Shown here: positions 339 through 61,541 of the stretch, one piece after another
How positions within the stretch are numbered: the stretch's first letter is position 1
Layout: each line of letters opens with the position of its first letter
Assembly: GCA_010093815.1 (NCBI GenBank)
Contig: ML996596.1
Direction: 5' to 3' (one strand)
Length of the DNA: 64,000 bases
DNA from: Pseudovirgaria hyperparasitica
Lineage: Eukaryota
Notes under the pieces: model-generated
What the model was told of the DNA's origin: nothing
Databases searched by the model: none
What the model saw: the letters and a program-made list of their open reading frames with translations, nothing else
Position numbers and translations under genes: made by a program

Positions 339-369
339 TTATTAGTCAAGGGCTACCCTTAACTAATAA
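339..369. repeat. 31-bp palindrome, first of ~16 copies
   Basis: Copies start at 339, 5116, 5792, 9901, 16885, 19163, 20428, 25202, 29261, 30545, 35322, 37159, 45749, 53049, 55764 (degenerate) and 61399. Confidence 0.95.
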
Positions 370-419
370 TCGGGGTTCTCCCGGGGTTCTTCCGGTATAT
401 ATCGGGTTACTACCGGCGT

Positions 420-3400
420 ATGCCGGGTCTCTTCCGGTATATATTTCCGGGTCCACTAGTACTAGAGGAGTAGTAGATATATAAGTATCTATCGGGAGAT
501 ATTCTTAGGGTACTCATTAAGCTATTATGCGATATCTAAAGTCTTCGTAATATAGATAAGCCATTACTATTATATATGGAGGTTAGGGTATATAGCTAGA
601 TAGTGGCGTATTATACCTCTCCGGCCGTACGCTTTATACTATAGGGAGGTATCGGGAACGCCTCTCTTATAGAGGTAGTATAGAAGTCCTATAGCGCCCG
701 TTCGGGCTTAGATAAGTATAGATACTTAGGCTTTCGTTAGCCCTTTATATATCTATTTACTCGGCTCCTTCTATGGCCCTCGAATCCACTCTAGGTACCT
801 ATCCTACTAGGAGGTCTAGTGGGCATAGAGTGTCTCTTTCTACTTATCTTAGGTCCACGACCGTATATTCTTTACGAGTTCTTAAGGGCTCTACTAGTCT
901 AGGAGAGTATCCGGGTTATCTCGGATTTCTTATACTACTTAGCTAGAGTCGGTTTCTATTAAGCACCTATACCGTATTCGATTCCGGCCTATATATAGAA
1001 GTGCGCGGTAATATATACTAATTCGTGCACGTAGCGCGGCGAAAGTGTATTCTACGTTTCCTATACGTTCCTATGCTTATTATTTAGTGAAGTATACCAC
1101 CCTCTATATCTAGTAGAAGTTATATATACTTATGACGTCTATCTCGCGTCGTAGTAGCACCGTGTTAGTAGCTTTATATACGCCTAATATAAGACGGAGT
1201 ATGCGGTTCTATATAGATTCGAGCTTCATTCGCCTAGTCTATATAAGGGCCGTATACTAGCACTCGTGTCCGTACGTGAAGGCGGGTCGTGCTATAGATA
1301 TATATAGCTGGCGTGCCTTATCCCGGGCGGTTCCCTATGTGGAGGCTATAATCCGTCGTATAGCGGCTTCTACCTAGAGGGCCCTAGAGACGGCGTATGC
1401 TACTTGTGGTCCCCATTTAAGCTTGCTATCTAGTATAACTCCGAGCGCGTGCATGCTTTATACTAGTAGTTCGTTAAATACGTCGATTCGGGGGCGTCGT
1501 TCGCCTTCCCTAGTTACCTATTTCCCTTAACGATTAATAAAGTATATAAGCTAGTATTTCTCCGGGGCGAACTTTACTCCGTGGCGTTTTACCTACTAGA
1601 GGCACCTCTTATAGTCCTATTCTAGTCGTCTATACGTTCGGTTAGTATTATTATTAATGGCTAGGAGGTATATATTATCGGCGTATCCGACTACCTCTAT
1701 ATACTTTATTCCTTAAAGAAGGTCTACCGTAAAGAAGAGGAATAGAATCGGAGAGATGGTACTCCCTTATAGGATGCCGCATACCGTCTCTTTATATTCG
1801 CTCTAGTACCTAGGGATATATATCTAAGTTATTCTTCCTATAAGGAATAACTATATGAAGCGTATAATCCATTCTAGTATTCGTCTTATCCGGAGGTTAT
1901 AAATAAGTCTTATATAGTTTACCTTATTAAACGCTCCGGCCATATCGAGGGAGAGAAGCGATACTACCCGTCCCTATTTCCATGCGGCCTGGACGACTTT
2001 AATAATATATTAGATAGCTATTATTAGGGAGCTATCTACCTTTGCCTTCTAGTTCGGAGGGAGAAGATTATATTCCTATACCGCGGTGCTCATCTTCTTC
2101 GCTATCGTGGCCTCTAGTATCTTATCTAGTTAGGAGAGAAGGGCGATTAGTCTCTATCCCTTTAGGGAGTTAGGGCTCTTTCCTAGTTTCGGGAGTATAA
2201 TAGTATAGGCGACTCGGAAGCTCTAGGGGTGGTACCCCTACGTGACGCATGCTTAGAATATACGAGTAATAAGCGGTAGGGTTACTTTTATAGTGCTTTT
2301 TAGGCATCGATTTAGAATTCCATCTAGTCCGGGTGCTTTATTATTTGGGAGTGTCTTAATAATATTAAGTATATCCTCCTCCGTAACTTCTTCGGGGATA
2401 TCTACCGCGTATAGGTATTCGGCGCCGTGAACGTCTAATAGGTCTACTAGTTCCGGGAGAGGGAACATGGCCTCCCGTAGGGCCTTAGTTTTCTTAAGGC
2501 TCGTGGAGTATGTTCTCCCCTAATGTATTAGGGGAGGCATAAGTGGCGGGGGTGTCGGAGTGTCTACGCCCTTAGTCCATTTCGCCATGCGCCATAGCCC
2601 TATTACGTGTCGTGTCTATTAACTAGTAATTATACGCTACTATTTACGCCTTTCGTTACGGAGGACTTTATCGCGTTATCGTATTACTTCCTTCTATTCT
2701 TCCTACGACTCGGGTGTTCTCGTACGGTATACGCGTATATATAGCCTTTAGGCGTCTTATCTACTTTCCCGTACTCAAGGAATCCCCTTTGCTTCCGGGG
2801 GCCGGTATATTCGGTATAGTACGTGTTTATTTCTTATATTCTAGTATGTTTATAGGAGTGTCTATACGGCCTGGTCTATGGCTAGGTCGTTGGATATATC
2901 GACTATAGAGGGATCTAGGATCGCCGATTCTAGGTCCTTTAGGTACTTTTCCTAGTCGGTGTCCTTCTATATCCATCGTCCCCGTTATTTATTCGGGGTA
3001 TATACGTTTATTATAGTTTCTATATATTTATGGTCGGAATCCGTCTATACCTAGCCTAGGCGGTAGTATTAGATCCGGTAACTAATGTGCTCCGTGGCGA
3101 AGGTAAGGTTAAGCGTGGACCCGTCTTCGTCCTATTTATGTTTTTTCTATATAACTTATTCTATAGGTGTAAGTAGGTATAGGAAGTCGTGGCAGCGGGT
3201 GCGTAGTTCCCTTACTCTAAGTTCTTCCCTAACCATGGCTAGGCCTCTCTACTATTAGTGGTGGAGGTTGAAGTCTCCTAGGAGGATGTGTTACCCTAGT
3301 TCCGTGGTACCCTCGAGCATCTCGTCTAGTATAAGTATACGTTATTAGTTATATGTGTTATATATATATAGGGGGCCTATATCTATTTATAGGTGTAGTG

Positions 3401-3665
3401 TTATCCTAAGGTTATCGCGCTCGGTGTACGACCATGATAAGAGTGGTATTAACCTATGAATATGGAAGAGGACTCGTCTTTCTGGTCCTAGAGGGTGTAT
3501 AGTGTGGTATCCGGGGTGTGTGGTTGGTTTGCTCGTCTAGTAGTGTTTGTAGGGTTCCTAGATAGCGAGTATTATGGCCCCGGTCTCTTCGAGGAGCGTC
3601 GCCTGGTTCTCTCTTTTATATTATACGTTTACCTATATAATTCGGAGTATATTCTGGTCCCTTAT
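420..3665 (-). pseudogene. LINE ORF2 (APE endonuclease + reverse transcriptase), RIP-disrupted; 3' end approximate
   Basis: LGDFNLHH (~3260-3285), DSDH (~3030), KAPGLDGI (ORF 2253..2468), SLDMAGAFNKV (~1920-1955), GYADNI (ancestral YADD, ~1675-1692). Confidence 0.88.
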
Positions 3666-5113
3666 TAGGTACTAGGGAGTATATATACCTACATGCTTAT
3701 TCCTTAGAGGCGCGACTATCCTCGCGCGGCAGCGGCTTTAACTATGCCTTTTAGTCGTCCTATCGTCTTCGGGATAGTCTACTATCCCGCCTAACTACCT
3801 TCCGGAGGGGAGGTTAGAGGTGTTATAAAGGAAGGGCCCGTAGTAGATATTATATTCTATAACCATCTCGCGCCTCTCGCTTTTATCGTGCGAATGTATT
3901 CTATAATCTATTTACGTTTTATACACGTTAACGACCACGACGGGTGTTTCCCGTCGTAGTTTAAATACTATGCTATGTCCCTGTTTCTTAGTCCGTCTCC
4001 TCGCGGTTTATAAGGGCACTCCTAGGTAGCGTGGTCTCTACGGCACCATCCGCACTTGGTCTTCTATAAGCACCTTTATACAGTGTGTCTATACCCTTAA
4101 TAGTTAAAGCACTATATTATTACCCATGCCCTATCCCATGGCTCGGCCATAAGGAGCTCTCCTTCTACTAGGAATCCCTCCTATATAATGCGTTATACGA
4201 GGGCGGGGTCTCGGAGCTCTATAATTATAGTAGAGTGTTTTTTCGCCGTCGTCTTAATCGTCTATGGGTTCTTCTACCACGCTTTTATAATCTTAATCCC
4301 TGGGTATTTTCGCACGTTGGATTGTTCCATGCGCGTAATATCCTCCGCTCCGATAGCCTGTCCCCGCATAGGTACTACGTGTACTATAATTAGGTATGTA
4401 GCTACCCTAATAGACGCGCCGGGGAAGATACTACCTATCACGTTCGGATCTCGCGAGATGTTTTACTACGTAGTATTCGTTATAGTAGTAAGTACTACCC
4501 TACCTAGTGTAACTTTAGTAGCCACGACGCTCGACTACATTCCTTTCTATTCGTTAATCTTATTTATAATTTCCTTTGGGGATGCCTATTGGACCTACGC
4601 TAGCGTGTCCTTATCCTAGATTACGACATGTATACTATATACTCCATCTATAGTCCTAGTGGTCCTTAGTGCGGTAGCTCCGGGTATTACTATAATCTAA
4701 GCCCACGTGTTAGGGCGCTTACCTTAGGATAGCTCTTCCTAGATTCTCCGCAGGCTGGCTTCCATTCGGTCGAGCCTACCACTAGGTTCCTCCCGTAGTG
4801 ACTTCCTTTCTTCCTCTATAATTCCTCTTAGGTTCCGGATAAGGTCCCGGAATATATAAAGGAGGGTCTTCTTTCCCTCCTCGGCGTCCCTCTCTACACG
4901 TATTACCTAGTATTTAATTTTATCTAGGAGGGTCTCCCCTCTCGGGGTCCCCTCGGTCTAGGTTATCTATAGCGCTTCGCACCCTTAGTTAGTTCCTATA
5001 TTTTAGATAGGTGTCTAGCTATCCACATTAATATCGCTATATAGCCGTTTCTACCATACTAGTGGGGGCATATCCGGCGTATACCAGGGTATTACGATGC
5101 CTAAGGCCGCCAT
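3665..5113 (-). pseudogene. LINE ORF1 (gag-like, CCHC zinc knuckles), RIP-disrupted
   Basis: ATG at 5113-5111 (ccATGgcggcc). CFNCQGYGH-like knuckle near 4070-4120 after reverting TA to CA/TG. Confidence 0.8.
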
Positions 5114-5402
5114 GGTTATTAGTTAAGGGCAGCCCTTAACTAATAAAAGGGGGTCGGCGTATCGGCGTTTATTAGATATAGTCTATACTCATATTATTAA
5201 AGAGTCTTTAAGCGTATATATATAGTATCTCTATACGTTGGTATCGTCGCGTATTATACGCTACACGTACGCACGTATGTCGGAGGTTGTTATACTCGGT
5301 ATACTCTATCGTTTAATGTATGTAAATCGCTATTTTACCCCGAATTGACTAGTTTGGTCCGTTGGGGTGTAAGAAGTTTTTCAGCTATATATATATAAGG
5401 TC

Positions 5403-6063
5403 AAATAGATATATAAAGGGCTTATAAAGGCCTAGACATCTATACTCCTCTAAGCCCGAACGGGCGCTATAGAACTCCTATACTACCTCTATAAGAGAGG
5501 CGTCCCTAACGTATCTCTATGGTATAAGGCGTATAGCCAGAGAGGCATAATACGCTACTATCTTATAATATGCCCCGATCTTTATACGTAAAGGTAGAAG
5601 CTTATCTATATAATAAGAACCTCCGATATCGTATAATAGCTTAATAAGTACCCTAAGGACGTCGCCCGGTAGATGATTATACACCTACTACTCCTCTAAT
5701 TCTAGTAGACCCGGAAATATATACCGGAAGAGACCCGGTATACGCTAGTAGTAACCCGATATATACCGGAAGAACCCCGGGAGAACCCCGATTATTAGTT
5801 AAGGGCAGCCCTTAACTAATAACCTCCGCACCTACACGTGCTACCTAAGGGTAAAATAACAGTAATATAGACTATAGGCTAATAGGCGTACCCTATAGCT
5901 ATATACTTAAGACGAAATAGAGGCTTAACGAGATATAGTTATAGATATAAGGAAGTTTTTCCCTATAGGGTTTCTTCTTACATAGTAGCTTAGACTAGAG
6001 GAGGCATAGGCCTGTAGAGTACTACTCTACCTAGTTATACAATATTATTATTATTATTATTAT
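5403..6063 (+). mobile_element. LINE 3' end and tail, right piece of the copy at 1-95
   Basis: Matches 28872-29532 and ends in (tta)n at ~6043-6063. Confidence 0.88.
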
Positions 6064-9664: not shown

Positions 9665-12600
9665 ATAATAATAATAATATTAGTAAACTAGGTAGAGTAC
9701 CACTCTATAGGCGCATGCCTCCTCTAGTCTAAGCTACTATATAAGAAGAAACCTACGAATAGGAAAAACTCCCTTATATCTATAACTACACTCTATCTAT
9801 CCTCTCGTTCTTTATATATATATAGCCCTAGGGGCTACCTATAGGCCTATAGCCTATATTATAATAGTTTACCCTTAGGTAGCACGTATAGGTGCGGAGA
9901 TTATTAGTTAAGGGCTGCCCTTAACTAATAATCGTGGTTCTCCTGGGGTTCTTCCGACGTATACTAGGGTTCTTCTAGTATATATCGGGCTTCTTCTAGT
10001 ATATATACGCGGGTCCACTAGAACTAGGGGAGAGGAAGGTGTATAAGTATCTATCGGGCGACGTCCTTAGAGTACTTATTAAGCTATTACGTAATATCGG
10101 AGGTCCTTATTATACGGACGAGGGCTTATCTTAGGGTATAGAGGCTAGAGCACGTCGCGAGATAGTGGCGTATTATATCTCTCCGGCTATAGTCCTCGCA
10201 CTAGGGAGATATATCTAGGACGCCTCTCTAGTAGAGATAATATAGAAGACCTATAGCGCCTATTCGGGCTTAGAGGAGCATAGATACTTAGGCCTTCGTT
10301 AGCCCTTTATATATCTATTTACTTAGTTCCTTCTAAGGCCCTCGGATCTATTCTAGATACCTATTCTATTAGGAGGCCTACTAGGCTTTAAGTACCTCCC
10401 TCTATTTATTCTAGATCTACGACTATATAACGCGGCTAAGCTCCTTAGGGCTCTATTAGCTCGGGACGGTATCCGGGTTATTTCGAACCTCCTACGCGGT
10501 CTAGCTTAAGTCCGCCTCTATATAGTATTTATATTATACTCGAGTTTATTCTATAGTAGAGAGGGCCTAGTAATACGCGCGGATACGTATACGTAGTACG
10601 GCGAAGATATATACTCTATCTCCTCTACGTTCTTATACTTATTATTTAGTAAAGTATATAAGTCTCTATGTCTAGTAGAAGTCCTATATACTCGTTACGT
10701 TTATCTCGCGTTAGAGAAGCGTCGTGTTAGTAGCTTTATATACGCCAGAGATAAGGCGGAGTATATAGTTTTATATAGACTTAAGCTTTGCCCGCCAAGC
10801 TTATATAAGGGCCGTATACTAGTACTCGTATCTATATATAAAGGCTAGGCGTACTAGGGAGACGTATAGCTATCTCGCCTTATCCCGGGCTGTTCTCTAC
10901 ATAGATACCGTAATCTAGTATATAGTGGTTTCTACCTAGAGGGCTCTAGAGACGGCGTGTGCCACCTATAGTCCCCATTTTAGCTTATTATTAATTATAA
11001 CGCCGAGTGCTCGTATACTCTATACTAGTAGTTCTATAAAGGTATTAATTTAGGGGCGACGTGCCCCCTCCCTAGTAGCCTATTCTCTATAGCGGTTAAT
11101 AAAGTATATAAGCTAGTATTTTTTAGGTACGAATTTTACTCCATGGCGCTTTATCTACTAGACGCATTTCTCGTGGTCTCGTTCGAGTCGTGTATATATT
11201 CTACTAGTACTACTATCGACTATAAGGAGGTATATATCGTCCGCGTATCTAACTACCTCTATATATTCTATTCTCTAAAGAAGGTCTACTATAAAGAAGA
11301 GGAAGAGGATCGGGGAGATAGTACTCCCTTACGGGATGCCGTATACCGTCTCCTTATATTCGCTTCGGTATCCGGGGATATATATTTAAGTAGTCCTTTA
11401 CGCGAGGAAGGACTATATAAATCGTATAATCCACTTAGGTATTCGCGTTATCCGGAGGTTATAGATAAGTCTTATATGGTTTACCTTATTAAACGCCCCT
11501 ACTATATCTAGGGAGAGTAGCGTAATAACTCGTCCTTATTTCTATATAGTCTAGATAACCTTAAGGATGTGTTAAATAGCTATAATTAGGGAGCTTTCTA
11601 CCTTCGCCTTCTAGTTTACTAGGAGAAGGCCGTATACCTATACTACTATACTTATCTTCTTAGTAATCGTAGCTTCTAGTACCTTACTAAGGTAGAAGAG
11701 GAGGGCGATCGGCCTCTATCCCTTCGGCGTATTTAGGCTCTTCCCTAGTTTTAGGAGTATAACTATATATATAGTTCGGAAGCTCTATAGGTGGTATCCT
11801 ATACGGGCGCACGCTTAGAATATATGGCCTATAATTAGTAAGGTCGCCTATATAGTCCTCTTAAGGCATTAATTTGGAATTCCATCTAGCCCGGGCGCTT
11901 TATTATTCAGGAGTATCTTAATAGCGCCGAGTATATCGTTATCCGTGATTTCCCTAGGGATACTTACAGCTTCTAGGTATTCCGTGCCGTCGATATCTAA
12001 TAGGTCTACGGGTTCTAGGAGAGGGAATATAACCTCTTATAGGATCTCTATTTTCTCGAGGCTCGTGGAGTACGTCTTTTCTTAATATATAAGAGGGGGT
12101 ATAAGTGGTATAGGTGTCGGGGAGGCGGTGCTTTTAGCCTATTTTACTATATACCATAGTCTAGTAGTATTACGTATGTATCTATCCGTGACTATATACT
12201 ACTATTTACGTCGCTCGTTACGGAGGACCTTATCTTATTATCTTCTCGCCTCTCTCTATTTATCCTACGCTTTAGGTATACGGTTATAGTATACGCGTAT
12301 ATATAATCTCCGGACTTCTCGCCTATACTCTCGTACTTAAGGTATGCTTTTCGGGTCTAGGGGTCTATATATTCGGTACGGCACGTGTTTATCTCTTACT
12401 CCCTAGTATATCTATAGGAGTATATTCACGGCCTGGTTAATGGCCGGGCCATTAGATACGTCGACTATAGACGGGTCTAGGATCGTTAATTCTAGGTCCT
12501 TCAGGTACTTTTCCTAGTTAGTATCCTTCTATAGCTATCGCCCTTATTAGTCTTAAGGGGTAGATACATCTATTACGGTCTCCATGTATTCGTAGTTAGA

Positions 12601-36855: not shown

Positions 36856-36937
<82 letters not shown>

Positions 36938-45601: not shown

Positions 45602-45799
45602 TATACCTCCCCGGCCTATAGAACTACTACCCTTAGTAGTATAGTAACCGTGTAAGAAACCGTGTAAAGAACGCCTAAAAGAAAGACCTTAATACGAATA
45701 AAATGCGCCCCTAGTAAACCTCTCGGCGCGGGTAAACCTTAGCCTAGATTATTAGTTAAGGGCAGCCCTTAACTAATAATTAGGTAGGTTTTTAGGCGC

Positions 45800-48733
45800 C
45801 TAATCTTAGTACTCGAGGTCGCGAGCCAGCTTCTAAAGAATCGTATCACTTATCTTAGAGAGGTTAGATTCCTTCTCGTCGGATAGTTCGTTAGGCCTCT
45901 CCTATCTATAGAAGTTCTCTTTAACGTTATCTAGGCCCGCGTTAGACTCGAATTTCTTAAAATTAATTAGCCGCTTAGCGGCGCGCGCCTCGTTAAATTC
46001 CTTCTAGAACGACCTATCCCTATAGACCAGCCTTTTCTACCTTACTATTTTCTTAAAGGTCTCCACAAATACCCTCGAGCCCTCCTTAAACTAGGCGTCT
46101 ACCTTAGCTTTAAGTTATTAAGGACTTATATTAAGCTACGCAGCTACCTCTTCTTTTACCTTCTAGCTATTCTATCTTTTACGGCCGACTAATGCGTTAC
46201 TAACGGCGTTAAAACTCGGGAGTTAAACTACGGCTAGGAAGGTAAAAGGAATCGCGCTATATTTATTAGAAAATCCTAACGGAGACGTAGGCCCCGGAGT
46301 TAAATTCCTATAAGCTACTACGAGTTGTTCCTATGTGCCCATTTTAGGCACTTCCATTATCATGTGATTAGGGCCAATCGCGACATACCATGGAAGTATC
46401 GTACGTCTTCCACCCTTTGCGGGACCCTAGGCGCCGTGTATTATTAGTAGGCTAGAGATACGCACTTTAAGGGACTAGTAGGGGACCGGGACGAAGGGAC
46501 TAAATCGTTTCTTATCGTCCGTATTATAGATCTTATTATTAATAGCCGTAATTATACCGTTTCGATTAACCCCCTCGCGGAGCTTAGCCTTCGACTACTA
46601 TTTATTTAAGAACTTATAGAAGCGGGGAACGATTATAGTATAGTCGTTACTTCGTTCGTTGTCGAGACTAATACTCCCCTAGATTATATTAAACCCGTAT
46701 CTATCGCTAGGATTAAGGATTTGATTAATGGCGTTGTCGAGATACTTAAAACCCGTCTTATCGCCCCTATCCTAGGACTTTACATAGTACGGGTACGAGA
46801 TTAGATAGTAGTTAAGATCGGGCCGAAGAGCGATATAGGTGAGCTAGTAAAGTAGGCATTACCTAATAAACTATTAGATATAGGAGTGGTATATAGTTCG
46901 TAGCTAGCCGTAGTTCGATTTCTTATTAAATATACGCTAGTAGTACTTATATATATTAAATTCATCCCTCGCGAGTTCTAGAATACTCTTATTAAGTATA
47001 GAGGTCGTCTTTTTAAGTAGCTCGAAGAGCCCTTTAATATTAACACTTCCGGTACGTTCCTACTCGTCGAAGAGTTATCTATCTATTCTACCATCCTCCT
47101 TCTAAATCATAAATACGATACTAGTAAGGATGGTTTTAATATTAATAACTTACTTCGGGGTCTCTAGGGCCTAGTAATAATAGACACCTAATGCCTCTAT
47201 CGGATAAGGTGGCCGCGCGTACTTCGTGAACCAGGTATAGCGGTCCTTATAAACTTTAAGGGCCCCCACGTTATCTCTAAACTTATATACTATTTTAAGT
47301 CTCGCTACTAGGTTTAAGTAGGACACGCTAACGAGCATATCATTCTTTCTAGCCACGTCTTAGTAATACTTATAGTAGACTTTATACGGAACAGCCATGT
47401 TACCTATCTACGCTTTCTAGCGTACTAGTAGGGCTATTCCCTTAATGCTCGTGAAATTCTTCTTTAATAATGTAGCTACCTTAAAAGTCTTCGTTACTAA
47501 AGGCGTGTATTAATACTTCTTAGGCTCGTCCTCTTCCTCGACCGATACTATCATCTTAGAGTACGAACTAAGAATAACTAGGGATTATCGTGTAGGCGCC
47601 CCTAGTAATTACTAAGGGCCGGTAGATAAGGCATGTCTACGAGTGGGTTTTGTCGGTATAGCTATAATAAGTACTAAAGAGGTTCTCGTATAGCCCGGTA
47701 AGGGACGTATACTAGTAGTAGTAGAAGGAATACTTACTTTAAACGGACGACTAGCTTCGAAGAGATAATATACTACTAAACTAGAAGGCGTGCTTCGTGG
47801 AGGGGACTTCACCATAGGCGTTACCTACGCTGGTTTTAGCGACGGTAAGGTCTAAGGCGGAGGCGATATACTTATCTCTTTGATTTATAGGTAGTATTCG
47901 ACGGGCCTATGAACCATTCTACTTATCCGTAACTATTGACTGGCGGGGATAATAAGTCCCGTCTTATTATGGAACGTTAGTTCATTTTATCGGCTAGGGT
48001 AGTTCGAGAGTTACTAGAGAGATAGACCGTCCTCATTACTATCGCTGGCTAGGGCGGCATCGATATTAGAGCTCTAAAGATATGCCTTGATTCCCCTTCC
48101 CTTCTATCCCTAGCCGATTCGGGACTATAGAGATACGTTTAACTAGTTCCTCGCTCTCGCCCATGTCCGCATTCGTAAGAGCGCTACTAGCTTTTCTATA
48201 AAGTTCTATATTTACTAGAGCTATCCGAGGGCGGATTAGAGTGACTAGCTATTATTATTAGGGAGGTCTTTTCGCTAGTTTTATAGGATTGCATTTTTAG
48301 CTTTTAGAATGCGGGAGTTAGTGTCTCTTCCACAACGAATTATCTCGTGGACTTCTTTCGGAATAGAGGAGTTAATCTTTACCTTACTATACCCTATTAC
48401 GGCTTCTACTTCCTAGAAGAGGTTAACTATACTACTTAAGAGCTATTCTATAAGGCTAGTGATATAAAGGAGATCATTAAACGTGTCTAGAATATAGTCC
48501 TATCGCTCTTGCGGGTCCTAGATGGCGATAATTCGGTTAATGGTGGACTCATTTACTTCTATAGCTTCTATAGCCTATCTATATAGAGTAGTAGATGGCC
48601 TCGATACCACGATAGCCGTCGATAGCCCTACTTTAGCACTCACGACTCTTAACTAGGACCGCGTCTATCTTATTAGTACTTAATAATCTTATAACTCTTT
48701 ACGGGTAGGCGTTTTCTTTTTCGGCGGGGCCAT
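45800..48733 (-). pseudogene. Gypsy-2 extra ORF3 of unknown function; 3' end approximate
   Basis: Starts MAPPKKKTPTRKEL at 48733. Only RIP-type TAA/TAG stops in the N-terminal ~90 codons I translated. The rest was sampled only. Confidence 0.6.
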
Positions 48734-49399
48734 TATTATTATTAGTTCTATCGGCGAGTTACGTTCTAAGGAGAGGTAGTTAAGTAAGGCGGAAGTAGAG
48801 GAGGAGGTTTTATTAATTAAGGAGGTATAGAGAGGTATAAGAGGGAAGAGTTATATACTATCTTAAGTTCTATTTTATGCCTCCTCGAATGCCGGGTATA
48901 TAGTAATTTTTATAAATGATCCTTACTAACGGCCGTAGGCCCGTATACGTGTCGAATCTATAAATGAATATATACTAGGTACATAGGAAATCTATGAATG
49001 AATGTATCTACTAGGTATATGGCGGAATCTATGAATAAATAGATACCGGGTATATTCTCATCCTTATAAGACTTCCTATAAGTATCTTTTTCTTCTATAC
49101 CTCCTCCTTCTTTTCTTCCTTATTAGTTCCTAACGGGGCCCGTTCTATAGTAACGAAATAGGCCTTCGATAGGTGGGCTTCGATTACACGACCGGCTTTA
49201 ATATATAGTAGGTGGAATTCGCGTAAACGCCATTATGTCTTCTTTCGAGCATTGCTTACTTTAATAATAAGTTTTATCATTTTATAGTAATGATAGGGTT
49301 TATTATCCTCTTTTAATGATGGAGTTCATCGTCCTTTTTCGATAATAGAGTTTATCGTTATAAGACTACTTTTATAAGTATCCCTTCCCTCCTTAAAAA

Positions 49400-52300
49400 A
49401 ACTTCTATCCCCTAGAAGGAGATGTCGATTCTAGAGAAACGTAAATATTCTTCTCTATTGAAGTCTTATAGAGTAGAAATTACCACTTCTACCCGGGTTC
49501 GTATAGCGTCGTTAAGGTATTCCGTAAGTTATTTATAATAGTTTTCCTTATCGCTACTCTTCTTATTTTCCTTAGTAATTCTTCTAATTAGTAGTCGCGA
49601 GGGCTCGTCGTAACTCTCGTTACTTATATTTCTTATAAAATATTTCTTTAACCTATGGCTAGGAAACGTCCCTCTAAGCATGGCTCTATTAAGCTCCGCG
49701 AGCTTATAAGTATAATTAAACACGGACTAGATTCTATATGGCCCCCTCTAATGCTACCTTAGCTTCCGCCCTATGTTCTTCTATCGCTACGAGTCGTATA
49801 GAAGGATAATCGTATCGACTAGTAACGACTCTTAACGAAGGTAATGGTCGTTATTCCATGCCTCTCTCGATTCCTTACGCGTTCGTGTCGCGTAGATATA
49901 GGCCTCCTTAAGATCCTCGGATCTTCTCTTAAGTTATCTAGCTCGAAGAGTAAGTAAGTCGGATGTCGATCGCACCTCGTCCTAAGGGAGTATTCGGAGC
50001 GACTCGAATTCGACTTCGATAGGCATGATTAGTTTATAGCTAAGCACGAGGTATATAGTACTATACCCTATACTAGCACGTGTCGTTATTCTATCTACCT
50101 AGATAACCGCATGGAGGTGGCCGGGCTAGTTCTTAAATCCGCTATTAGTTATCTTCGTAAGAGCATTAGCGAGTAGTATAAAACTTCTCTTAATAATTCT
50201 ATTTACTCGGGGATTATATATAGACGTAACCTTCTAATAAATTCTATAGAGTCGGAGGAGCTCCTCTATGGCACCTATATTTTCTCTACCACCATTATAG
50301 GTAATTTTAGGAATGATTCCGTATCTATAGATTACGTTCTTAAAGAGGAACTTTACGACGACTATAGACGTGGCCGCCGTACATGCCTCCGCCTTAGTCT
50401 ATCCGCTTAGCTATTCTCGTATAGATACTACTTTACTATACTCTATAGAAGGTGGTAGCGTCGTTACGTCTAAGTATATTCTTTACTAAAGAATAGACGT
50501 TATAACGTGGTAGAGCCCTTTATTAAGACCTCTAAGAAGTTTACTTTATCGTTAATATTCGTTATAGGTTTTCACGTACTATCGCACGTCTCTACGTATA
50601 TCTACCTACTAATACTTATCCTTAATCCTTCTAAGGGTCCCTTCGCTATCTCTATGATCTATCTTATTATAAGTAGTAGTAATTATACACGCCCTAGTAT
50701 TCGGATCCTTAATTACTCGTGTGTGTTAGCGATACCTATCTTCTCTCTACTAGAGTATTCGGTCACACACGAGGAACTTTAGATAGTTAGTTATAAAGGC
50801 CTTATACGCTCGGTCGGTTAGGTCGGTTAGCCTCTTAAGTATAGTAAGGTACTTCGTAATCCTCTACCATTTATCGCTATATTTATCTATTAAGGGAGAC
50901 TTAATAGCGGTATAGTTGAGTATCCCTATCGTGTAATCTCTCCCGCTAACGGGCTTAATTAACGACGTCTCTAGTACGTCTATATATAGAGCCATATCCA
51001 CGAACTCGTCTAGGTTAAAGGTAGAGACGTCTAGTAGTTCTTCTCCTTCGTATATCCATAAGATACCATCAGCGACTACGTTACGCTTCCTAGGTACGTG
51101 CCTAACTATAAAGTTCTATAGCTAAATCCACGCGAGCCACCTAGTAACGAGCGCCCCTAGTAAGTTAGTTACGGTATAGTTAATTTAAGTAACTAGAGTA
51201 TTCGCGTCTATTTTTATAATAAAGTACGTGCTATAGAGATATTACTAGAACTTCTATAACGCGTGGAGGAGGGCTTAGTACTCTAGCTTCACGGTGTCGT
51301 AGTTTCTGTTAGCTTTTAACTACATTCCTCCATTATACCGCGATAGCTAACGTTTACGATTCTCGTTCTCCTATATTAACGTAGCTCTCTACCTAACGTT
51401 ACTAGAGTCTACTACTAGGATTATGTCTCCCGTACCTATCCTATACCGTAACATTATTAGTATAGGAGTAGTGGTTAGAGCTATCTTTAGCGCGTCCATC
51501 GAGGTCTACTTCTTAGCTATCTACTACTAGACCGATTTATTCTTTAATAGTATAAATAGCGGTAATATAATAATAGCGTACCCGGGGATCTATATCCGGA
51601 AATATATATAAACGCTAAGGAAGGCTCGCACATTCGTCGTGTTTTTATAGGGTTTCTAGTCCCTAATAGTAGTAACCTTTTTATTACTCGGTCGCCTCCC
51701 TTTAATATCGTAGACGTATCCTATAACGTTAGCGGCTTTAACATACTACTAAGTCTTCTTACTACTTAGGGCGTATCCGGCGCGCTCTATATCCGCGAGA
51801 ACCTTATCTATGTTAATTAAATGTTCTAGAATATACCTACGAATTCTAGGCAGGGCCTCCTTAGAGTTATATTTCGTCGTAGGTCCTTTAATATCTAAGT
51901 CATCTAGGAATAGTAGAGCCCTCTCCGGGATGTGTTCTTATATAATAGTTAATATAATTCTAATAAACTAAGCTACTAAATTAGTAGCCCCTTAAGGTAA
52001 TATTATCCCGCGTAGTAATTCTAGGGGCGTTATAAACCCCGTTAAGTCTTAGTAATACTCTACTAATAGAATCTAATTATATCCTAAGAAGAAGTTGGTA
52101 AACGTTAAGACGGCTATCCCCGTAAAGTGCTCCGAGAACTCTTTACACGAGGGCGGCGTGGCCGTATTACGAATAGTGACTCGGTTAATTTCTATCGCCG
52201 AATTGATTAACCTATAATCTCGTTCCTTATTAGCTTCCTTCTTCTTTTCCACGAGAAAATAGGCGTTTTAATAAGGACTACTATAGGGCTCGAGCCTTCC

Positions 52301-55300
52301 GCTATTAAGACGCTCTTTTAGGATTATGAGTACCTTCCTATAAAGGGCTCTAGGAATATTAAAGTTCTTAGCCTACTATACCTTATGTTCTACCGTTCGG
52401 ATCTCCTACGGAGATGCCACCTCTTTATTAAATTTACTAAGGTATAAGAATTTCTATGCTAGTACTTCCTCGCGATATAATAAGATTATATATAGTAACT
52501 TAAGTTCCGCGGGACGTAGCTCTATTCTAATCTTTAGCTAACTTATACGTAGAGGCGTTAGACGTGTTCCTAGCGGGATAGTTACCCTTCAAGGCTCTAT
52601 TAGCCTACTAAACGCGTTAAGGCCTAGATAGACGGCCAGAAGAAGTACCTACCGTGCGATTACTCGTTCACGCTAGTCTAGATACCCTAATAGATTCCTA
52701 GGAACCTTTCGGTAGACTTCGGAGTCATCTACGGGGTATACTTTAACTCCCTTTCTTTTATACATGGTAGCCATATTAAATCCCTTTAATACCCCGGATG
52801 AATACCGTCTTTAGAGGCTAGTAGAGCCTACTATAAGCTATTCTATTATCGTGCCTTATTTATGTACGAAGGCAGCGTACCTTACTACCGTAACTAGGGC
52901 GGCTAAGTCATCTTTTCTTAATAACCGAGTAACATTTTTAGGCCGGATTTTCTCGGAAAGTAACTCTATATAACTCATTTCTATATCCGTATAAAAATAT
53001 AGCCTATCCCCTTCGTTAGTAGGTTTACCGGACCCTATTTAGTGCGGATTATTAGTTAAGGGTAGCCCTTAACTAATAATCCGGCTTAACTCCGGCTTCT
53101 AGCGATATACTCCGCTATATAGTTAGTCTCTAGCCACGGAGTTACCCTCCTTCTCTAAGACTAGAATATACTTATCCGGACTAGTTTCGAAGGTTACACG
53201 TTCTTATCTATATACGGAGTAGACTATTAAGAGTACTTACCCGGAGGCTAACCTCTATACTATAAGTAAGGCCTATCTAGTATATGGCTCCCCTAGAATA
53301 AGATTATAATTAAGTTCGCTATACACGAATATCGAAGTGGCCGTAACGATCCGACCTATATAGATAGGGTATTACTATACTATTCCTACGAATAGAGTAC
53401 TATACTAAGTAGCGCTAACTAAACTCGAGTTCTTTATATATGGTAGAAGCGAAGATATCGCTAGCCTAAGACGCCTCGTAGCATCTAGTCGAATACTATT
53501 TACCTATGCGCTACTATCGAATAGTACTATACTAGTCGCCCTTTTAGGACTAACTTCCACGGGGTACCTTAGATACTTAGCCACTAGCCTTACTATCCCT
53601 TCCTTAAGCTAATTAATATCTTATTACGTGATGGCCGTCCCTATGGCATAGAGGGGTACTAATACATTAAGTTTATTTATCTTAGAAGCCATAGTATAGT
53701 CGTTTCTTTCTTTCTTCTCGGCTCTCTCTTCTTAAGTCTTATAGACCTCTCTAGCCATGAAGTCGGGGGCGCCCTTCTTAAACACCGTACGATATAAGTT
53801 ACTATTAAGGCTTAATAGTTTACTAATAGTAATGTTTATGGTTATCCCTAGAACGCGCACTAGCTATGCTTCGCTAGCTTCTATACTTAGCCGCTATCCT
53901 TCGCGTAGATAGTTATTAAGCTTAACACCTCGGATACGTGCCTTTTGACTAGGATTTAGGCTATCCCCTTCATCTATCTTGTCCTCCAGCGCCGTTGGCT
54001 CTTATTTAGACGTTCTCTAGTCGCTACTCTTCTCGCCGTCCTCCTATTCCTTAATAATCCTTATATACTACCCTTTACGCATTCCGCGGAGGCGGGCGAT
54101 CTTTCTTTCCTTAGTATAATTAGGTATACTCTTCGTGATCCCCCTTCTAGATATTACGAGTATAGCGGGCTCTTCTAGAGCTATCTCCTTATGGATATAT
54201 CTATTACTAGCCACGTCGAAGCGTTCGTAGAATTCTATATATCTATCTTTCTTACTCTCGGGCGATATAACTTCTTCTTCTAAATCGCTATCCGCCGAGG
54301 CCTAGTAGGGACCCTTCATAGGTTTTATACTAATACTATATACCGGCACTCCCTATAAAGCGTTAATGTTTACTACGGACGTAGAAACCTTTACTCCTTC
54401 TCCGTACTAGCTTAGGCCGTTTTAAACCGTTACTATATAGTTTCGGATAGCTTATAGAGTAGCTTATAGCCCTACCGAGGAGGGTAGTAATAGGATTTCT
54501 TCTCCGTTCGCCCTAAAACGCCCTTAGAATACTCGTACCCCGTTAATATTTAGTAATCCGTCTCTAATATATTCTACTATCTCCGGATATCTATATATTA
54601 GGTGATCTCCTCCGTACGTAATATATACGATCGGTCTTCGAGGCCTATCCTAGGCCATAACGCCTCCTTAGAAGTCTTAGGTAGAGACGTATTCTCTATT
54701 CTATATATAATTCTATGGATAAACTTACGTTAGTTCTATGGATATGCCTCGTACTTAGGGATGTACTAAAAGATTTAGCCTTCGCGCCTACTAGTTAATA
54801 ATAGCCGAAAGTAGCTTAGGTTCGTACTTCTTAAGGGATAGGAATAAGGGATTAGAGGTAAAGTAGGACTTTATCTTAATTAACGTGAGGTCTAGTTTAC
54901 TAAATCTCTCTACTATCTCGTTAAACTTGTCCGATTCTAGCGCGACGTGTACTACGACTAGAGAGGGGTAGTTAAATTTATTAGTTCTTCTTTCTTTATA
55001 TAACTACTCTTCTAAGCCGGTCTTCTTACTCTCTATCTTTAATTTATAGTATATGGCTATGGCTAGCTCTTGTGCGGCTAAGTACTTATTAATATAAGCG
55101 AGTTCCTTAAGTGCTCTAGCCTTTCGTAATACGAAGCCATAGATAATTACCTAGTCGTAACTATGTACTTCCATCGTAAGTTAACATTTCTCTATAGCCC
55201 GAGCCTTAAGACTATTAGGCAGCCCTTCTAGGAAGAGCTCTATTCGCGAATACGAGCTTAGGCTTCCTTTAGCCGTAAGTTTCTCTATAATAACACGATA

Positions 55301-55985
55301 CCGGGAGTAGTACATAGGGAGAGAGTAGGATAGGTCTACTTTAACCATTTCCACGTATTTTCGGATAAAGTGGATGGTGCCTTCCTCGAGGGTAGAGTTA
55401 AATAGAGAGAATTCCTTTAATAATTCTTCACGTAGCGTAGCCTACTACTATTTCTAAAACCTACTTATTCCTTTAATAGTAGGACGGAGATAGTCCTCGT
55501 AGTATGACGGTAGAGAGGTTATCTTCTTATTAGGCGGAACTTCGTAGTTTATATACATGTCCTCGTACTTCCGAAGGAAGGCCGTAATATTTATTCCTTT
55601 AAAGCGCTCGGGGGCTAGGGTAGATAGAGGTACTATCCTTCCTTATCGCGCAAATGCTACGAAGAAGTTAAGTATCTCTCTACGAGTTACTAGGTTGTTA
55701 TTTTAAGCTCCTATCGCACTATTACTAGTAGTAGGTATACTAGTGGAGACGCTAGGGGTAAGGTTATTAGTTAAGGGATTACCTTAACTAAAGGTTGGCC
55801 TAATGCGTCTACCTATAACACCTATTATCCCTTCTCTATGTTAACTAATCCCTTTATAAGGTGAACTATTACTATCGTCTTCATTAATATAAGGTTCACG
55901 GTATTCTACTTATGTTATTATCTTCGTGTAAGGCGTTCCTAAAGTGGTATACTCGTATAGCCGTGTTTATAAATAATAGCTATAG
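49400..55985 (-). pseudogene. Gypsy-2 gag-pol; ends approximate
   Basis: Gag APERFKGINITAFLRKYE (~55560-55617), protease VLFDS(G)AQVN (~53500-53528), RT LFLDDLDIKGP (~51881-51913), RNase H VDSSNV (~51395-51412), integrase YNPRVNRIIKR (ancestral YNPRANG..ER, ~50185-50218). Confidence 0.88.
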
Positions 55986-56274
55986 TAGCACTAAATAGAT
56001 TATATTTGTCGTTTTTGAACTCTTCTTTACTGCTTCATCTAGCCCTATTTTATATCCTATTCCCCTAAGACATTTTCGAGTCGCGCTATCACCCGTGTTA
56101 GTATGCGCATGCTTTTTACGGCTACTTTTAAGAGGCTAGCCCCTAGCGACTCCGGACTCCCTGTTTTCCGGACTCGTGGCTTCGATCTAGTAAGTCTAGA
56201 CTACCTTATTAGGCACGCCATATACTTCCCCTAAGCTAGTTTCGGAGTCCTAATCTCCCCCTATAAGTTCGTAG

Positions 56275-56291
56275 TCCGGGTACGACCTCTA
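56275..56291 (-). promoter_or_regulatory. Primer-binding site of Gypsy-2, probably for tRNA-Gln
   Basis: + strand tccgggtacgacctcta reverts to tccgggcacgacctCCA, 4 nt from the 5' LTR. It resembles my recollection of the 3' end of Pezizomycotina tRNA-Gln (not verified). Confidence 0.55.
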
Positions 56292-56295
56292 AAAT

Positions 56296-56667
56296 TATAG
56301 TAAGCTATCGCCACGTGTGTCCCTTTTATAAATAGCTATGTTCCTAGTATAGTAGTCGCGACGAACTCATAAGTATCTCTCCTAGGTATTATGAGTTCTC
56401 TTTGAACGTACGACTTCTTATTAGTTCTCTTTTATAATAGGACGGGTCTATATAATACTCTTAATCAATTCTTTAATAGCTAAGCCTAATAATTAATACC
56501 TATAGAGGCCCATGAACGTAAGAAAAGGTCGAATAGTCGAATATTAGTGATGGGGGAAGCGCGCCGAGTAGAATGACCAAGGAAAACGCCCTCCTTAAAT
56601 ATATAATGAAGCCATGTAATCGAGCTAGGGACATATACATATAGGGCTACAGGAGCGGCCTTCTATA
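56296..56667 (-). repeat. Gypsy-2 5' LTR
   Basis: Direct repeat of 45230-45601. Confidence 0.93.
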
Positions 56668-57049
56668 CTATATTAGACTAAAAAGAGAAACGGCGTTTAG
56701 AGCAAGGCGGCGAAGGCGTAAACTCTCGATTATTGTCTACGACAAGATCTTCTTCATCCTCTAAAGGAGGTATAGTAGATAGGCGGCGCGAGTAGGTGTA
56801 GGTAGGCTTTATAGCTACCTCTTCCGTAACACTAGTACTAGGATTACCTAGATTAGAGCGACTAGTGGCCACGTTAGTGGTAATAGTAGTAGTAGCCTTA
56901 GCTACCTTCTTCTCTAACTTAGAGCGCGCCTTTATACTACTATAATAAGTGGATTTTTTAGCCGGTATAGCCGGGGTAGAGATAATCCCTTTAGAGCGAG
57001 TCTTACGAGAGGAGGAGGTAGACTTAGGAATAGAACTAGTATTAGACAT
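56668..57049 (-). pseudogene. 5' part of the Gypsy-1 antisense accessory gene (S/T/K/R-rich N-terminus)
   Basis: ORF 56678..57049 MSNTSSIPKST. Its TAG stop is RIP-type and the frame continues at 45225. Confidence 0.65.
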
Positions 57050-57776: not shown

Positions 57777-60700
57777 CTTACCCCCCTTAGTAGTCTATTT
57801 CCCTTAGTAGTTAATAAAGTATATAAGCTAGTACTTTTTAGATATAAACTTTACTCTATAGCGCTTTACCTATTAGATATATCTCTTATAGTTCTATTTA
57901 AGACGCCTATATATCTAGCTAGTATTATTATTAATAGTAAGGAGATATATATTATCTATATATTACGTTCTCTAGAGAAGGTCTATAGTAAAGAAGAGAA
58001 AGAGAATTAGAGAGATAGTACTTCCTTAAGGAATACTATATAATATTTTTTTATATTCGCTATAATATCTAGAAATATATATCTAGATAACCCTTTTAGT
58101 AAGGAAGGACTATATAAACTATATAATCTACTCTAGTATACGTCTCCTCTATAGATTATAGATAAGTCTAGTATAGTTTATCTTATTAAATATACTAGCT
58201 ATATTAAGGGAGAGTAGCGTTACTATATATCTCTATTTCTATATTTATAGTCTAGATAACTTTAAGGATATATTAGATAGCGGTAATTAGAGAGCTACTA
58301 GTCTTTATCTTCTAGTTTACTAGAAGAAGACTATATACCTATACTATAACGCTTATCTTCTTCGCGATTATAGCTTCTAGTATCTTTCTAGGATAGAAGA
58401 GAAGGGTAATTAGTATCTAACCTTTTAGAGAGCTAGGATTCTTTTCTAGTTTCGGGAGTATAACTATATAGATAGCTTAGAAGCTTTAGAGATAGTATCT
58501 ATTCTTAGCGTATACCTAGAAGATAAGATTAATAAGCGGTATAGTTACCCGTATAGTATATTTAAGGTACCTATTTAGTATTCTATCCGGCCTAGATACC
58601 TTATTATTAGAGAGCGCTTTAATAGTATTAAGTATATTCTCTTTAGTAATCTTCTAGGGAATATCTATTAGATCTAGATACTTAGTATCTTTAATATTAG
58701 ATAGGTCTACTAGTTCTAGAAGGGGGAATATAACTTCTCGTAGAATCTCTATCTTCTTCTAGCTTATAGAGTATATTCTTCCTTAGTATATTAGAGGAGG
58801 TATTAGTAGTAGTAATACTAGGGTATTAGTATCCTTAGCCTACTTAGCTATATACTATAGCTCTATAGTTTATTATATATACTTACTAGTAATTATATAC
58901 TATTATTTATGTTATTTATTAAGGAGGGTTTAGTTATAATATTATACTATCTCTTTCTACTTATTCTATGCCTTAGTTATCTAGATATAGTATATATATA
59001 TATATATAGTCTATAGGCCTCCCGTCTATATTCTTATATCTAAGATATACCCCTTACGTCTAGGGGTCTATATAGTTAGTATAGTACGTGTTTATCTCTT
59101 ATATTCTAGTATACTTAAAGGAGGGTTTATACGGCTTTATTAATAGTAGGGCCGTTAGATATATTAACTATAGGGGTATCTAGAATCGCCGATTCTAGAT
59201 TCTCTAGATAGTTATCCTAGTTAGTATCCTTCTATATCTACTTTCCTTATTAGTTATTAAGAGTAGAGACGTCTATTATAGTCTCTATATATTTATAGTT
59301 AGAGTCTATCTATAGTAGGCTTAGGTAGTAGTATTATACTCTATAGCTTATATAGTTAGTAGTAAGTATAAGGTCGATAGTAGATCTATCCTTATTCTAT
59401 TTATATCTCTTCTATATAATCTATTCTATAGATATAAGAAGGTATAGGAAGTCCTAGTATCGTATATATAGCTCCCTTACTCTAAGTTCCTCTCTAATAA
59501 TAGTAGGGCCTCTCTACTATCTATAGTAGAGATTAAAGTTACCTAGAAGGATATATTCTCCTAGTATTATAGTATCCTTAAGTATATTATCTAGTATAAG
59601 TAATTACTATTAATTATATATATTATAGATATAAAGGGGCTCTATACTTATCTAGAGATATAATATTATCTAGAGGTTATTACGTTCGGTATAGGACTAT
59701 TCTAAGAGTAGAATTAACTTATATATATAAAATATTACTCTTCTATCTCGGCTTATAGGGTAGATAGTATAGTATTCTAGATATATTATTAGCTTATTAG
59801 TTTAGTAGTACTTATATAGCTCCTAGATAGTAAGTATTATAGCCCTAGTTTCTTTAAGGAGTATCGCCTAGTTCTCTCTTTTATACTATATATTTACCTA
59901 TATAATTTAGAGTATATTATAGTCCCTTATTAGATACTAGAGAGTATATATATCTATATACTTATTTCTTAGAGGTAGAGCTATCCCCTTATAGTAGTAG
60001 CTTTAACTATATCTTTTAGTCGCCCTATTATTCTAGAAATAGTCTACTATTCTACTAGGTTACCGTTCTAGAAGAAGGTTAAGGTTATATTTATTATAAT
60101 AGAAGAGCTTATAGTAGATATTATATTTTATAGCTATATTATATCTCTTACTTTTATTATATAAATATACTTAGTAATCTATCTATATTTATTATATATT
60201 AATAATTATAATGGGTATTTTCCTTTATAGTTTAAATACTATACTATATTCTTATTTCTTAGTCCGTCTTCTTACGGTTTATAAGAGTATTTCTAGATAG
60301 TATAGTCTCTATAATACTAGCCGTATTTAGTCTTCTATAAATACTATTATATAGTATAGCTATACCCTTAATAGTTAAAGTACTATATTATTATCTATAC
60401 TCTATTCTATAGTTTAGCTATAAAAAGTTTATCTTCTATAAGGAATCCCTTCTATATAATATATTATATAAGGGTAGAGTCCTAGAGCTATATAATTATA
60501 GTAGAGTATTTTTTAATCTTTGCCTTAATCCCTTATAGATTCTTCTATTATACCTTTATAATCTTAATCTCTAGATATTTTTACTTCTTAGCTTATTCTA
60601 TATATAAAAGATTCTCTATACTAATAGTCTATCTCTATACTAGTACTATATATATCTATATTAGATATATAGCTATCTAGATAGATACGCTAGGGAAGAT

Positions 60701-61541
60701 ATTATCTATCGCGTTTAGATTACGTAAGATATTCTACTATACTATATTAGTTATAGTAGTAAGTACTACCCCTTCTAGTATAACTTTAGTAGCTATAATA
60801 TTTAACTATATTCTCTTCTATTTATTTATCTTATTTATAATTTCCTTTAGAGATACTTATTAGATCTATATAAGGGTATTCTTATTCTAGATTATAATAT
60901 ATACGCTATATACTCTATCTATAATTCTAGTAGTCCTTAGGGCGGTAGCTCTAGATATAGCTATAATCTATACCTACGTATTAGGGCGCTTATCTTAGTA
61001 TAGCTCTTTCTAAATCTATCGTAAGCTAGCTTCTATTCTATTAAGTCTATTATCTAGTTCTCTTTATAGTAATTTCTATAGTAACTTTCTCTCTTCCTCT
61101 ATAAGTTCTCTTAGATTCTAGATAAGATCCCGGAATATATAGAGAAGGGTCTTCTTCTCTTCTACCGTATCTTTCTCTATATATATTATCTAGTATTTAA
61201 TTTTATCTATAAGGGTCTCCTCTCTTAGAGTCCTCTTAGACTTAGTTATCTATAGTATTACTTACCCTTAGTTAGTTTCTATATTTTAGATAGGTATTTA
61301 ACTATCTATATTAATATTACTATATAGCTATTTCTATTATACTAGTAGGGGTATTTCTAGTATATACTAGGGTATAGCTATATCTAAGGCCGCTATAGTT
61401 ATTAGTTAAGGGCTATCCTTAACTAATAAAAGGGGGTTAGTATATTAGTATTTATTAGATATAGTCTATACTTATATTATTAAGGGGTCTTCGAGCGTAT
61501 ATATATAGCTTCTTTATATATTAGTATTATTATATACTATA

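Follow-up and report, generated by a model that had tools for sequence, protein, structure and literature searches.

Introduction

The stem-loop II motif (s2m) is a short, conserved, structured element of the 3' untranslated region (UTR) found in Coronaviridae, Astroviridae, Caliciviridae, and Picornaviridae; it contains a palindrome that dimerizes, and its function is described as unresolved (PMC8789046). For the retrotransposon Ty1, palindromic PAL sequences have been proposed to mediate genome dimerization (PMC4974528), and long interspersed nuclear elements (LINEs) of the stringent type have 3'-UTR stem-loops that are recognized by the LINE protein and occur with partners among the short interspersed nuclear elements (SINEs) (PMC4176376, PMC5135761). 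Here we describe a 31-bp palindrome in a 64-kb stretch of the genome of Pseudovirgaria hyperparasitica (GCA_010093815.1, contig ML996596.1; this whole stretch is the window), where it is shared by a LINE and an unrelated long terminal repeat (LTR) retrotransposon. The explanation we favor, at a probability of about one in three, sees the 31-mer as a cis-module that forms a hairpin or pairs with itself in retroelement RNA or cDNA and has been exchanged by recombination.

Like s2m, this motif is one module common to unrelated replicating elements, presumably via recombination. The two differ in that neither sequence nor structure matches (no Rfam match): s2m adopts an irregular fold of 41 nt whose 4-nt loop is palindromic, whereas the present motif is a fully self-complementary 31-mer that occupies 5' as well as 3' UTRs, and those of retrotransposons instead of RNA viruses. 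With the cyclization sequences CYC5 and CYC3 of Ty1 it has in common one copy near each RNA end, and it would work alike; the Ty1 pair consists of two distinct short sequences whose complementarity was proven with compensatory mutants (PMC4974528), whereas here an identical palindrome stands at both ends, occurs also in a LINE, and has been paired computationally only. Stringent-type LINEs likewise have a 3'-UTR hairpin, one which other elements can share (PMC4176376, PMC5135761). Our motif departs from these in lying ~220 nt from the tail, in being duplicated in the 5' UTR, and in being common with an autonomous LTR element, which can do without the enzyme of the LINE. Stringent-type stem-loops adjoin the 3' tail and are common with SINEs that use the LINE machinery; in the LINE described here the hairpin is not directly upstream of the 3' tail repeats.

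Miniature inverted-repeat transposable elements (MITEs), foldback elements, and bacterial repetitive extragenic palindromic (REP) elements are also short palindromic repeats, dispersed across a genome, which tolerate only non-coding positions. Unlike MITEs and REP elements, our motif is without target-site duplication, conserved termini, or a parent transposase, and it holds fixed positions in two retroelement families. In non-coding organelle DNA, hairpin-associated inversions repeatedly flip the loop between inverted repeats, and similarly, in the set of 13 LINE copies, the central base of our motif has switched at least twice between A and T. Such an inversion is a mutational by-product, not an element, and explains the pattern of variation only.

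The cis-acting RNA and DNA structures of fungal retrotransposons are almost unstudied, and we found no earlier description, in the literature searched, of a discrete structural module exchanged between a LINE and an LTR element. The 17-nt core strings retrieved no paper, and keyword searches gave no description of such a motif among the papers listed.

A 31-bp palindrome at 16 sites in two retroelement families

The palindrome reads TTATTAGTTAAGGGC(A/T)GCCCTTAACTAATAA and has perfect dyad symmetry, with 15-bp half-sites around one central base. The pattern TTATTAGTTAAGGGCWGCCCTTAACTAATAA matched the window 15 times at up to three mismatches and never in 100 dinucleotide-preserving shuffles. 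An initial annotation, made from the DNA letters, had listed ~16 starts; 15 are these matches, and the sixteenth, at 55764, is degenerate, keeping 10-bp arms (TTAGTTAAGG/CCTTAACTAA) and differing at the centre and at one outer end. Allowing six substitutions across the window revealed no site beyond the 16, and a scan for solitary arms found none, every half-site at up to one mismatch falling within the 16 sites. The 31-mer dominated a census of the perfect palindromes in the window with arms of at least 11 bp.

Thirteen of the palindromes lie in copies of a LINE with apurinic/apyrimidinic endonuclease (APE) and reverse transcriptase (RT) that have been mutated by repeat-induced point mutation (RIP), and three lie in one 11.4-kb Ty3/Gypsy element, Gypsy-2, where we call them C1 to C3 (Table 1). 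Besides the A/T centre and the copy at 35322, which has G at motif position 10 where the other copies have A, the differences between copies of the motif are all C>T or G>A, most of them affecting the CpA/TpG at its centre. In C3, positions 15 and 17 are altered together, from C-G to A-T, with the symmetry preserved. We rejected chance or RIP convergence as the origin of the 31-mer, given the 15 matches against none expected and the AT-rich arms already present in lightly mutated copies.

Table 1. Palindrome sites and their host elements in the 64-kb window
Feature	Position	Strand
Palindrome, LINE copy 1 3' UTR, sense centre A, RIP-changed	339..369	
Palindrome, LINE copy 1 5' UTR, sense centre T, ends 2 nt before CCATGG	5116..5146	
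Palindrome, 3' UTR of 5'-truncated LINE fragment 5403-6068	5792..5822	
Palindrome, 3' UTR of diverged LINE copy 9646-13190, perfect over 35 bp	9901..9931	
Palindrome, 5'-UTR context, LINE fragment 16032-17002	16885..16915	
Palindrome, 5'-UTR context, LINE fragment 18916-20189	19163..19193	
Palindrome, LINE copy 2 3' UTR, sense centre T	20428..20458	
Palindrome, LINE copy 2 5' UTR, sense centre A	25202..25232	
Palindrome, 3' UTR of LINE part 25882-29545	29261..29291	
Palindrome, LINE copy 3 5' UTR, sense centre T	30545..30575	
Palindrome, LINE copy 3 3' UTR, sense centre A	35322..35352	
Palindrome, 3' UTR of LINE fragment 36903-38322	37159..37189	
Palindrome, 5'-UTR context, LINE copy 57781-61548	61399..61429	
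C1, Gypsy-2 palindrome, 144 nt upstream (element sense) of 3' LTR	45749..45779	
Extended imperfect 79-nt hairpin around C1, RNA -37.2 kcal/mol	45725..45803	-
C2, Gypsy-2 palindrome, perfect over 39 bp save RIP-changed centre	53049..53079	
Stretch around C2 aligning with LINE 3' UTR, 68-76 nt, 75-80% identity	53042..53109	-
C3, degenerate Gypsy-2 palindrome, 10-bp arms, ~500 nt after 5' LTR	55764..55794	
LINE copy 1, full-length, APE+RT, (TTA)n tail at 88	88..5398	-
LINE copy 2, full-length	20187..25430	-
LINE copy 3, full-length	30296..35597	+
Gypsy-2 LTR retrotransposon; LTRs 45228-45605 and 56294-56672	45228..56672	-

Placement in the LINE

The window is a nest of mutated transposons in which no stop-free frame exceeds 187 aa. 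Self-BLAST resolved a ~5.3-kb element with three full-length copies and seven fragments. With stops read as X, Pfam recognized RVT_1 above its cut-off (57-59.8 bits) and Exo_endo_phos_2 below its cut-off of 27.4 (22.6-23.3 bits) in copies 1 and 3, on the minus and plus strand, respectively; the plus frames of copy 1 matched no family because they are the wrong strand. The encoded protein has 87 relatives with APE and RT domains, the best only 32% identical, and the 3' end of the element is a (TTA)n tail. Judged by its predicted APE and RT and its simple-repeat 3' tail, the element is a LINE.

The initial annotation had assigned two palindromes to each full-length LINE, and all three copies bear this out: the 5' palindrome starts at element nucleotide ~250, and the 3' palindrome stops ~250 nt short of the element end, with ~220 nt between it and the (TTA)n tail. 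All 13 LINE copies that cover these positions carry the motif. In the two least mutated copies the 5' palindrome is followed after 2 nt by an ATG in a CCATGG context, which the others read as ATAG. Given the RIP damage, this ATG is no more than the likely start of open reading frame 1 (ORF1).

Repeats accompany the palindromes of the LINE. Directly upstream of the 3'-UTR palindrome we noted, by eye, ~3.5 tandem copies of a ~21-nt CCGG-rich unit, TATAYRCCGGWAGWRACCCGR (35270-35321), and CCGG-rich ~21-nt repeats also occupy the equivalent stretch of other LINE 3' UTRs. A similar CCGG-rich unit stands ~30 nt downstream of the LINE 5'-UTR palindrome. In the corresponding place, C2 bears two repeats of 11 nt. 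The window's longest stop-free frames (159-171 aa) are antisense to the LINEs, at 4104-4619 (+), 24193-24681 (+), 31099-31587 (-), and 11032-11511 (+). They have no Pfam family, the sense frames are filled with stops, and the long antisense frames may arise from the composition that RIP leaves or may represent an antisense ORF.

Placement in Gypsy-2

Gypsy-2 is bounded by LTRs of 378 bp that are 94% alike by self-BLAST. Pfam found RT_RNaseH on the minus strand (39.3 bits), and the element is 36-41% identical to proteins with RT, RNase H, and integrase, its own integrase being recognized by eye only. From its LTR pair and its apparent RT-RNaseH-integrase order, this second host is a Ty3/Gypsy LTR retrotransposon, so that domains, tail, and LTRs together confirm both hosts of a palindrome that had been described as common to LINE and LTR elements. 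Three copies had been claimed for Gypsy-2: C1 and C2 are intact and C3 is degenerate.

C3 lies in the leader, just upstream of a gag-like region recognized by eye. C2 follows a protease-like LILGEPY motif (seen by eye, with no Pfam hit) and precedes by ~280 nt the position at which pol proteins from eight relatives start or become alignable. C1 is in the 3' untranslated end. With C3 in the leader and C1 close to the 3' LTR, the layout resembles that of the LINE. On the basis of these positions, all five contexts of the palindrome, two in the LINE and three in Gypsy-2, are non-coding or weakly constrained.

Pfam returned nothing credible for 48 stop-free fragments of Gypsy-2; the two sub-cut-off scores, Stap_Strp_tox_C (20 bits, cut-off 27) and YfiO (14.6 bits, cut-off 25), were taken as chance. 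At 11.4 kb the element is unusually long, and the stretch of ~4 kb that separates its integrase region from the 3' LTR (45606-49500) had no Pfam match in the three sense frames.

The arms vary less than RIP predicts

Variation in these families is dominated by transitions, which outnumber transversions 1017 to 81 among the variable places in contigs of the source sample over 20 kb (run X1). In the flanks of the 13 LINE copies, RIP-type changes affected 70% of CpA, 38% of CpG, 19% of CpC, and 11% of CpT. The motif contains a single CpA/TpG, its centre, and lacks CpG; its remaining sites are CpC and CpT, so much of its apparent stability is to be expected. Both the scarcity of RIP-favored sites and the excess of transitions would fit a neutral hitch-hiker, that is, a young, functionless piece of LINE UTR, nearly free of such sites, that Gypsy-2 captured via recombination; we regard this as a serious, though rather unlikely, alternative to a pairing module.

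The transversions argue against it. None of 60 arm columns had one. In the flanks ~10% of columns did, 16 of 154 when 40 nt were considered (p = 0.007) and 23 of 230 when 60 nt were (p = 0.006); gapped columns were dropped and related copies counted as independent in these statistics, so the p-values are optimistic. Across the 13 LINE copies, the arms without the centre showed no non-RIP change in 390 cells, versus 9-11 expected, and the motif accumulated 21 RIP-type changes versus 28-35 expected from flank rates per dinucleotide context. At its CpC and CpT sites there were 5 in 117, below the flank rates, which a hitch-hiker would also leave unexplained. The motif has four non-RIP changes, each of them an A/T flip at its centre; in sense orientation the centre is T in three and A in three LINE 5' contexts, and A in six and T in one LINE 3' context.

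The initial annotation had stressed that the motif is kept although its neighbors differ. The neighbor differences are C>T or G>A and largely an effect of RIP, which weakens that argument, but the arms do have fewer transversions than their flanks and are the better conserved, in LINE copies that are all RIP-mutated. We conclude from these alignments that a real constraint on the arms beyond the RIP expectation remains.

One Gypsy-2 copy carries LINE flanking sequence

The flanks of the palindromes had been called non-homologous. That description holds for the LINE 5' and 3' contexts, which have nothing in common but the motif and a few neighboring bases, with no arm pair above chance. It fails for C2, whose upstream arm (element sense) is identical to the LINE 3'-UTR upstream arm at 20 of 30 positions, ungapped, abutting the motif, and in the same sense. 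This match had p = 0.0006 versus random window pairs and p = 5e-5 versus 20,000 random LINE-versus-Gypsy pairs (~1e-3 corrected for 24 arm pairs), the anchored tests having been applied to 7 of the 24 possible pairs, picked after earlier results. With blastn the match lengthened to 68-76 nt at 75-80% identity, and E fell from ~1e-5 for the core alone to 2e-10. On the other side of C2, TCCGCAC is common with the LINE 3' UTR after a 2-nt offset (by eye), and a 10-mer, ATAGGCTATA, at similar distance in C2 and the LINE 3' UTR adds weakly to the match (8 in the window versus 4.6 expected). The two best arm matches, C2 upstream with LINE upstream and C3 downstream with LINE downstream, are both same-sense.

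The homology around C2 points to transfer between the elements, as far as alignments can tell, rather than to the convergent acquisition that the initial annotation had proposed; flanking homology of this kind was what that annotation had itself named as evidence to the contrary. Extra LINE 3'-UTR sequence beside C2 also suits a captured hitch-hiker. The same comparison, however, found the core of C2 identical to that of the LINE 3' UTR save at the central RIP site, next to 30 nt that are only 20/30 identical. An identical core beside a 67%-identical homologous flank with C/G transversions argues for constraint on the core or for its homogenization. Moreover, all five contexts are centred on the same 31 bases, and the three short acquisitions by Gypsy-2 all include the motif, so a hitch-hiker would have to be a recombination hot spot at least.

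Searches beyond the window

RIP-degenerate patterns had no locus in metagenome contigs (31-nt pattern and 25-nt core), prokaryote genome contigs, or viral contigs, an absence that would fit a neutral hitch-hiker. Rfam gave no match at gathering score over the whole window and none at E up to 1 over a full LINE copy, and a search of the window for tRNAs found none. Two sequencing runs, both of one sample, contain the stretch, and no RNA run is among those listed. In run X1, 48,829 of 592,746 contigs matched positions 42001-62000 at a likeness of at least 80%, and these families therefore have many diverged copies in the source sample. In a second sample, labeled as the same species, a contig of 115 nt contains the motif between LINE 3'-UTR flanks and shows no difference from the C2 form over 33 aligned letters.

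The palindrome is predicted to fold as a hairpin and to pair with itself

As RNA the 31-mer folds at -15.8 kcal/mol (z = -4.4 to -5.4), with none of 200 shuffles as stable, and as DNA at -10.9 kcal/mol. In Gypsy-2 the flanks lengthen the stem, most strongly at C1, where the hairpin reaches the size and stability given in Table 1. When the core was kept and the flanks were shuffled, the lengthening had z = -4.6 at C1 (0/200), -3.3 at C2, and -2.3 at C3; in the LINE contexts the flanks do not lengthen the stem (z = -0.4 to -1.2). The added stem arms differ among the Gypsy copies.

A self-complementary sequence implies that two copies in one RNA are mutually complementary and able to pair. The computed 31-bp duplex of two copies has -42.7 to -49.3 kcal/mol, versus -31.6 for two separate hairpins (2 x -15.8), and a T-centre paired with an A-centre gains ~5 kcal/mol over like with like. 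By position and by computed duplex, the LINE RNA thus has complementary sequences near both ends. In each of the three full-length LINEs the central base of the 5' copy complements that of the 3' copy: (T,A) in copies 1 and 3, and swapped to (A,T) in copy 2.

Perfect 31-bp dyad symmetry with 15-bp half-sites could instead mark a stretch of duplex DNA bound by a dimeric protein, such as a transcription factor, a boundary factor, a site-specific recombinase, or a transposase, with pairs of sites bracketing the coding block. The sites do flank the ORF blocks of both the LINE and Gypsy-2, the joint change at positions 15 and 17 of C3 kept the symmetry, and 31 bp is within the length range of recombinase sites and terminal inverted repeats. 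A transcription factor would need fewer than 31 invariant bases, however, and flank-driven lengthening of the hairpin would be needless for any duplex site. The recombinase version meets a further difficulty: lox and FRT sites have inverted arms around an asymmetric 6-8-bp spacer, whereas here only the central base is asymmetric, and no recombinase or transposase domain was found in the parts of the window scanned with Pfam. The 31 invariant bases together with the context-specific lengthening of the stem favor nucleic-acid pairing over a duplex protein site, and we consider the latter unlikely.

Still less probable is a miniature foldback DNA element, akin to a MITE, that inserted independently into non-coding parts of the transposons. 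The perfect palindrome, its ends T-TA...TA-A, which are compatible with TA duplication in TTAA, the longer imperfect inverted arms of the Gypsy copies, and its occurrence only where insertion is tolerable would suit such an element. In the five contexts inspected, however, there is no flanking direct repeat beyond an ambiguous TA that is itself part of the palindrome. No empty site was found either: every one of the 13 LINE copies carries the motif, and no indel at a Gypsy-2 palindrome occurred among the 12 rows listed of 26, in contigs that are very short. Assembly graphs at k=31 should break at a 31-bp palindrome, which makes this a weak test for palindrome-less copies. The centre is conserved and the outer arms vary among C1, C2, C3, and the LINE contexts, opposite to a MITE, in which conservation is at the termini; the window holds neither solitary arms nor a parent element with the palindrome as its terminal repeat; and we know of no eukaryotic MITE as small as 31 bp. 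The minimal mobile unit suggested by the initial annotation has no target-site duplication, empty site, or conserved outer termini to show for it. A piggyBac, PIF, or Helitron end or excision footprint was rejected for want of fit to the terminal motifs and because identical 31-bp remnants at five sites are unlikely, and a three-frame stop cassette because AT-rich 31-mers often close all frames and the copy at 339 leaves one open.

A proposed pairing module exchanged between retroelements

We return to the hairpin or self-pairing module as the favored explanation. Under it, the master copies of the two families would already have had the motif when they began to multiply; in the case of Gypsy-2 the argument draws on a single copy and on no common palindrome-less variant having been seen. 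It would have moved between the LINE and Gypsy-2 most simply by RT template switching at the hairpin, with a variable length of flank co-transferred. The paired 5'/3' layout suggests end-to-end or RNA-RNA pairing, and the two copies may pair to cyclize one RNA or to dimerize it with another. The central A/T flips and the stem lengthening in Gypsy-2 would then be traces of strand switching across the hairpin. Both the function and the direction of transfer are what we infer from these features.

Several observations weigh against this explanation. Every copy seen is RIP-mutated and dead, the conservation statistics count related copies as independent, and the apparent constraint comes from within this genome alone. 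Flank homology is solid for C2 only: the C3 downstream arm matches its LINE 3' counterpart marginally (gapped p = 0.002, ~0.05 corrected), and the flanks of C1 match no LINE flank significantly, the LINE 5' UTR included. Unanchored local alignments of 65-120 nt of flank, RIP-aware or plain, did not reach significance (z at most 3.0; lowest p among 24 pairs, 0.025), which means that the stretch in common is short. The complementarity of the centre bases has a chance probability of ~0.125, which is not significant, and copies 1 and 3 are close kin; beyond the 31-mer, LINE 5'-3' complementarity does not extend into the flanks. A bulge-free stem with a 3-nt loop is unusual for protein-recognized RNA hairpins and equally typical of DNA-level sites. 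In stringent-type LINEs, finally, the element recognized by RT adjoins the tail and does not lie 220 nt upstream.

A bolder version, which we think improbable in its entirety, has the self-complementary module exchanged across retroelement classes as a paired 5'/3' signal that cyclizes one RNA, dimerizes two, and could pair LINE with Gypsy RNA, promoting co-packaging, template switching, and its own spread, and that would make it a transposon counterpart of s2m. If self-pairing is how the motif works, it would provide a straightforward example, open to testing, of 5'-3' communication within a LINE, and also a route for recombination between unrelated transposons. Even as a plain hitch-hiker the motif would mark a hot spot of recombination and a class of sequence that escapes RIP.

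Other features of the window

The census of perfect palindromes held only one other long one, a 28-bp palindrome, TAATATAAGCTAGTACTAGCTTATATTA, present twice in another repeat, at 29949-29976 and 36581-36608. That repeat is a ~610-bp AT-rich unit with two inverted copies (29698-30305 and 36254-36859) that are 95% alike. The 28-bp palindrome is 251 nt from the end of the unit that faces the LINE (TTA)n tail, the same distance as from the 31-mer to the LINE ends; that end abuts the tail in one copy and is ~150 nt off in the other. The units belong to an inverted segmental duplication (28128-30305 versus 38322-36254) comprising the LINE 3' part, its tail, and the 610-bp unit, and full-length LINE copy 3 lies between the two arms.

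Another Gypsy-type element, at 38300-45200 on the plus strand, has RT and integrase motifs by eye and is without a copy of the 31-bp palindrome; tblastn with the frames of Gypsy-1 found no match in Gypsy-2. Microsatellite palindromes occur at 36903-36938 and 61545-61580, with (AAT)n/(ATT)n where LINE tails meet other sequence, and (TA)18.

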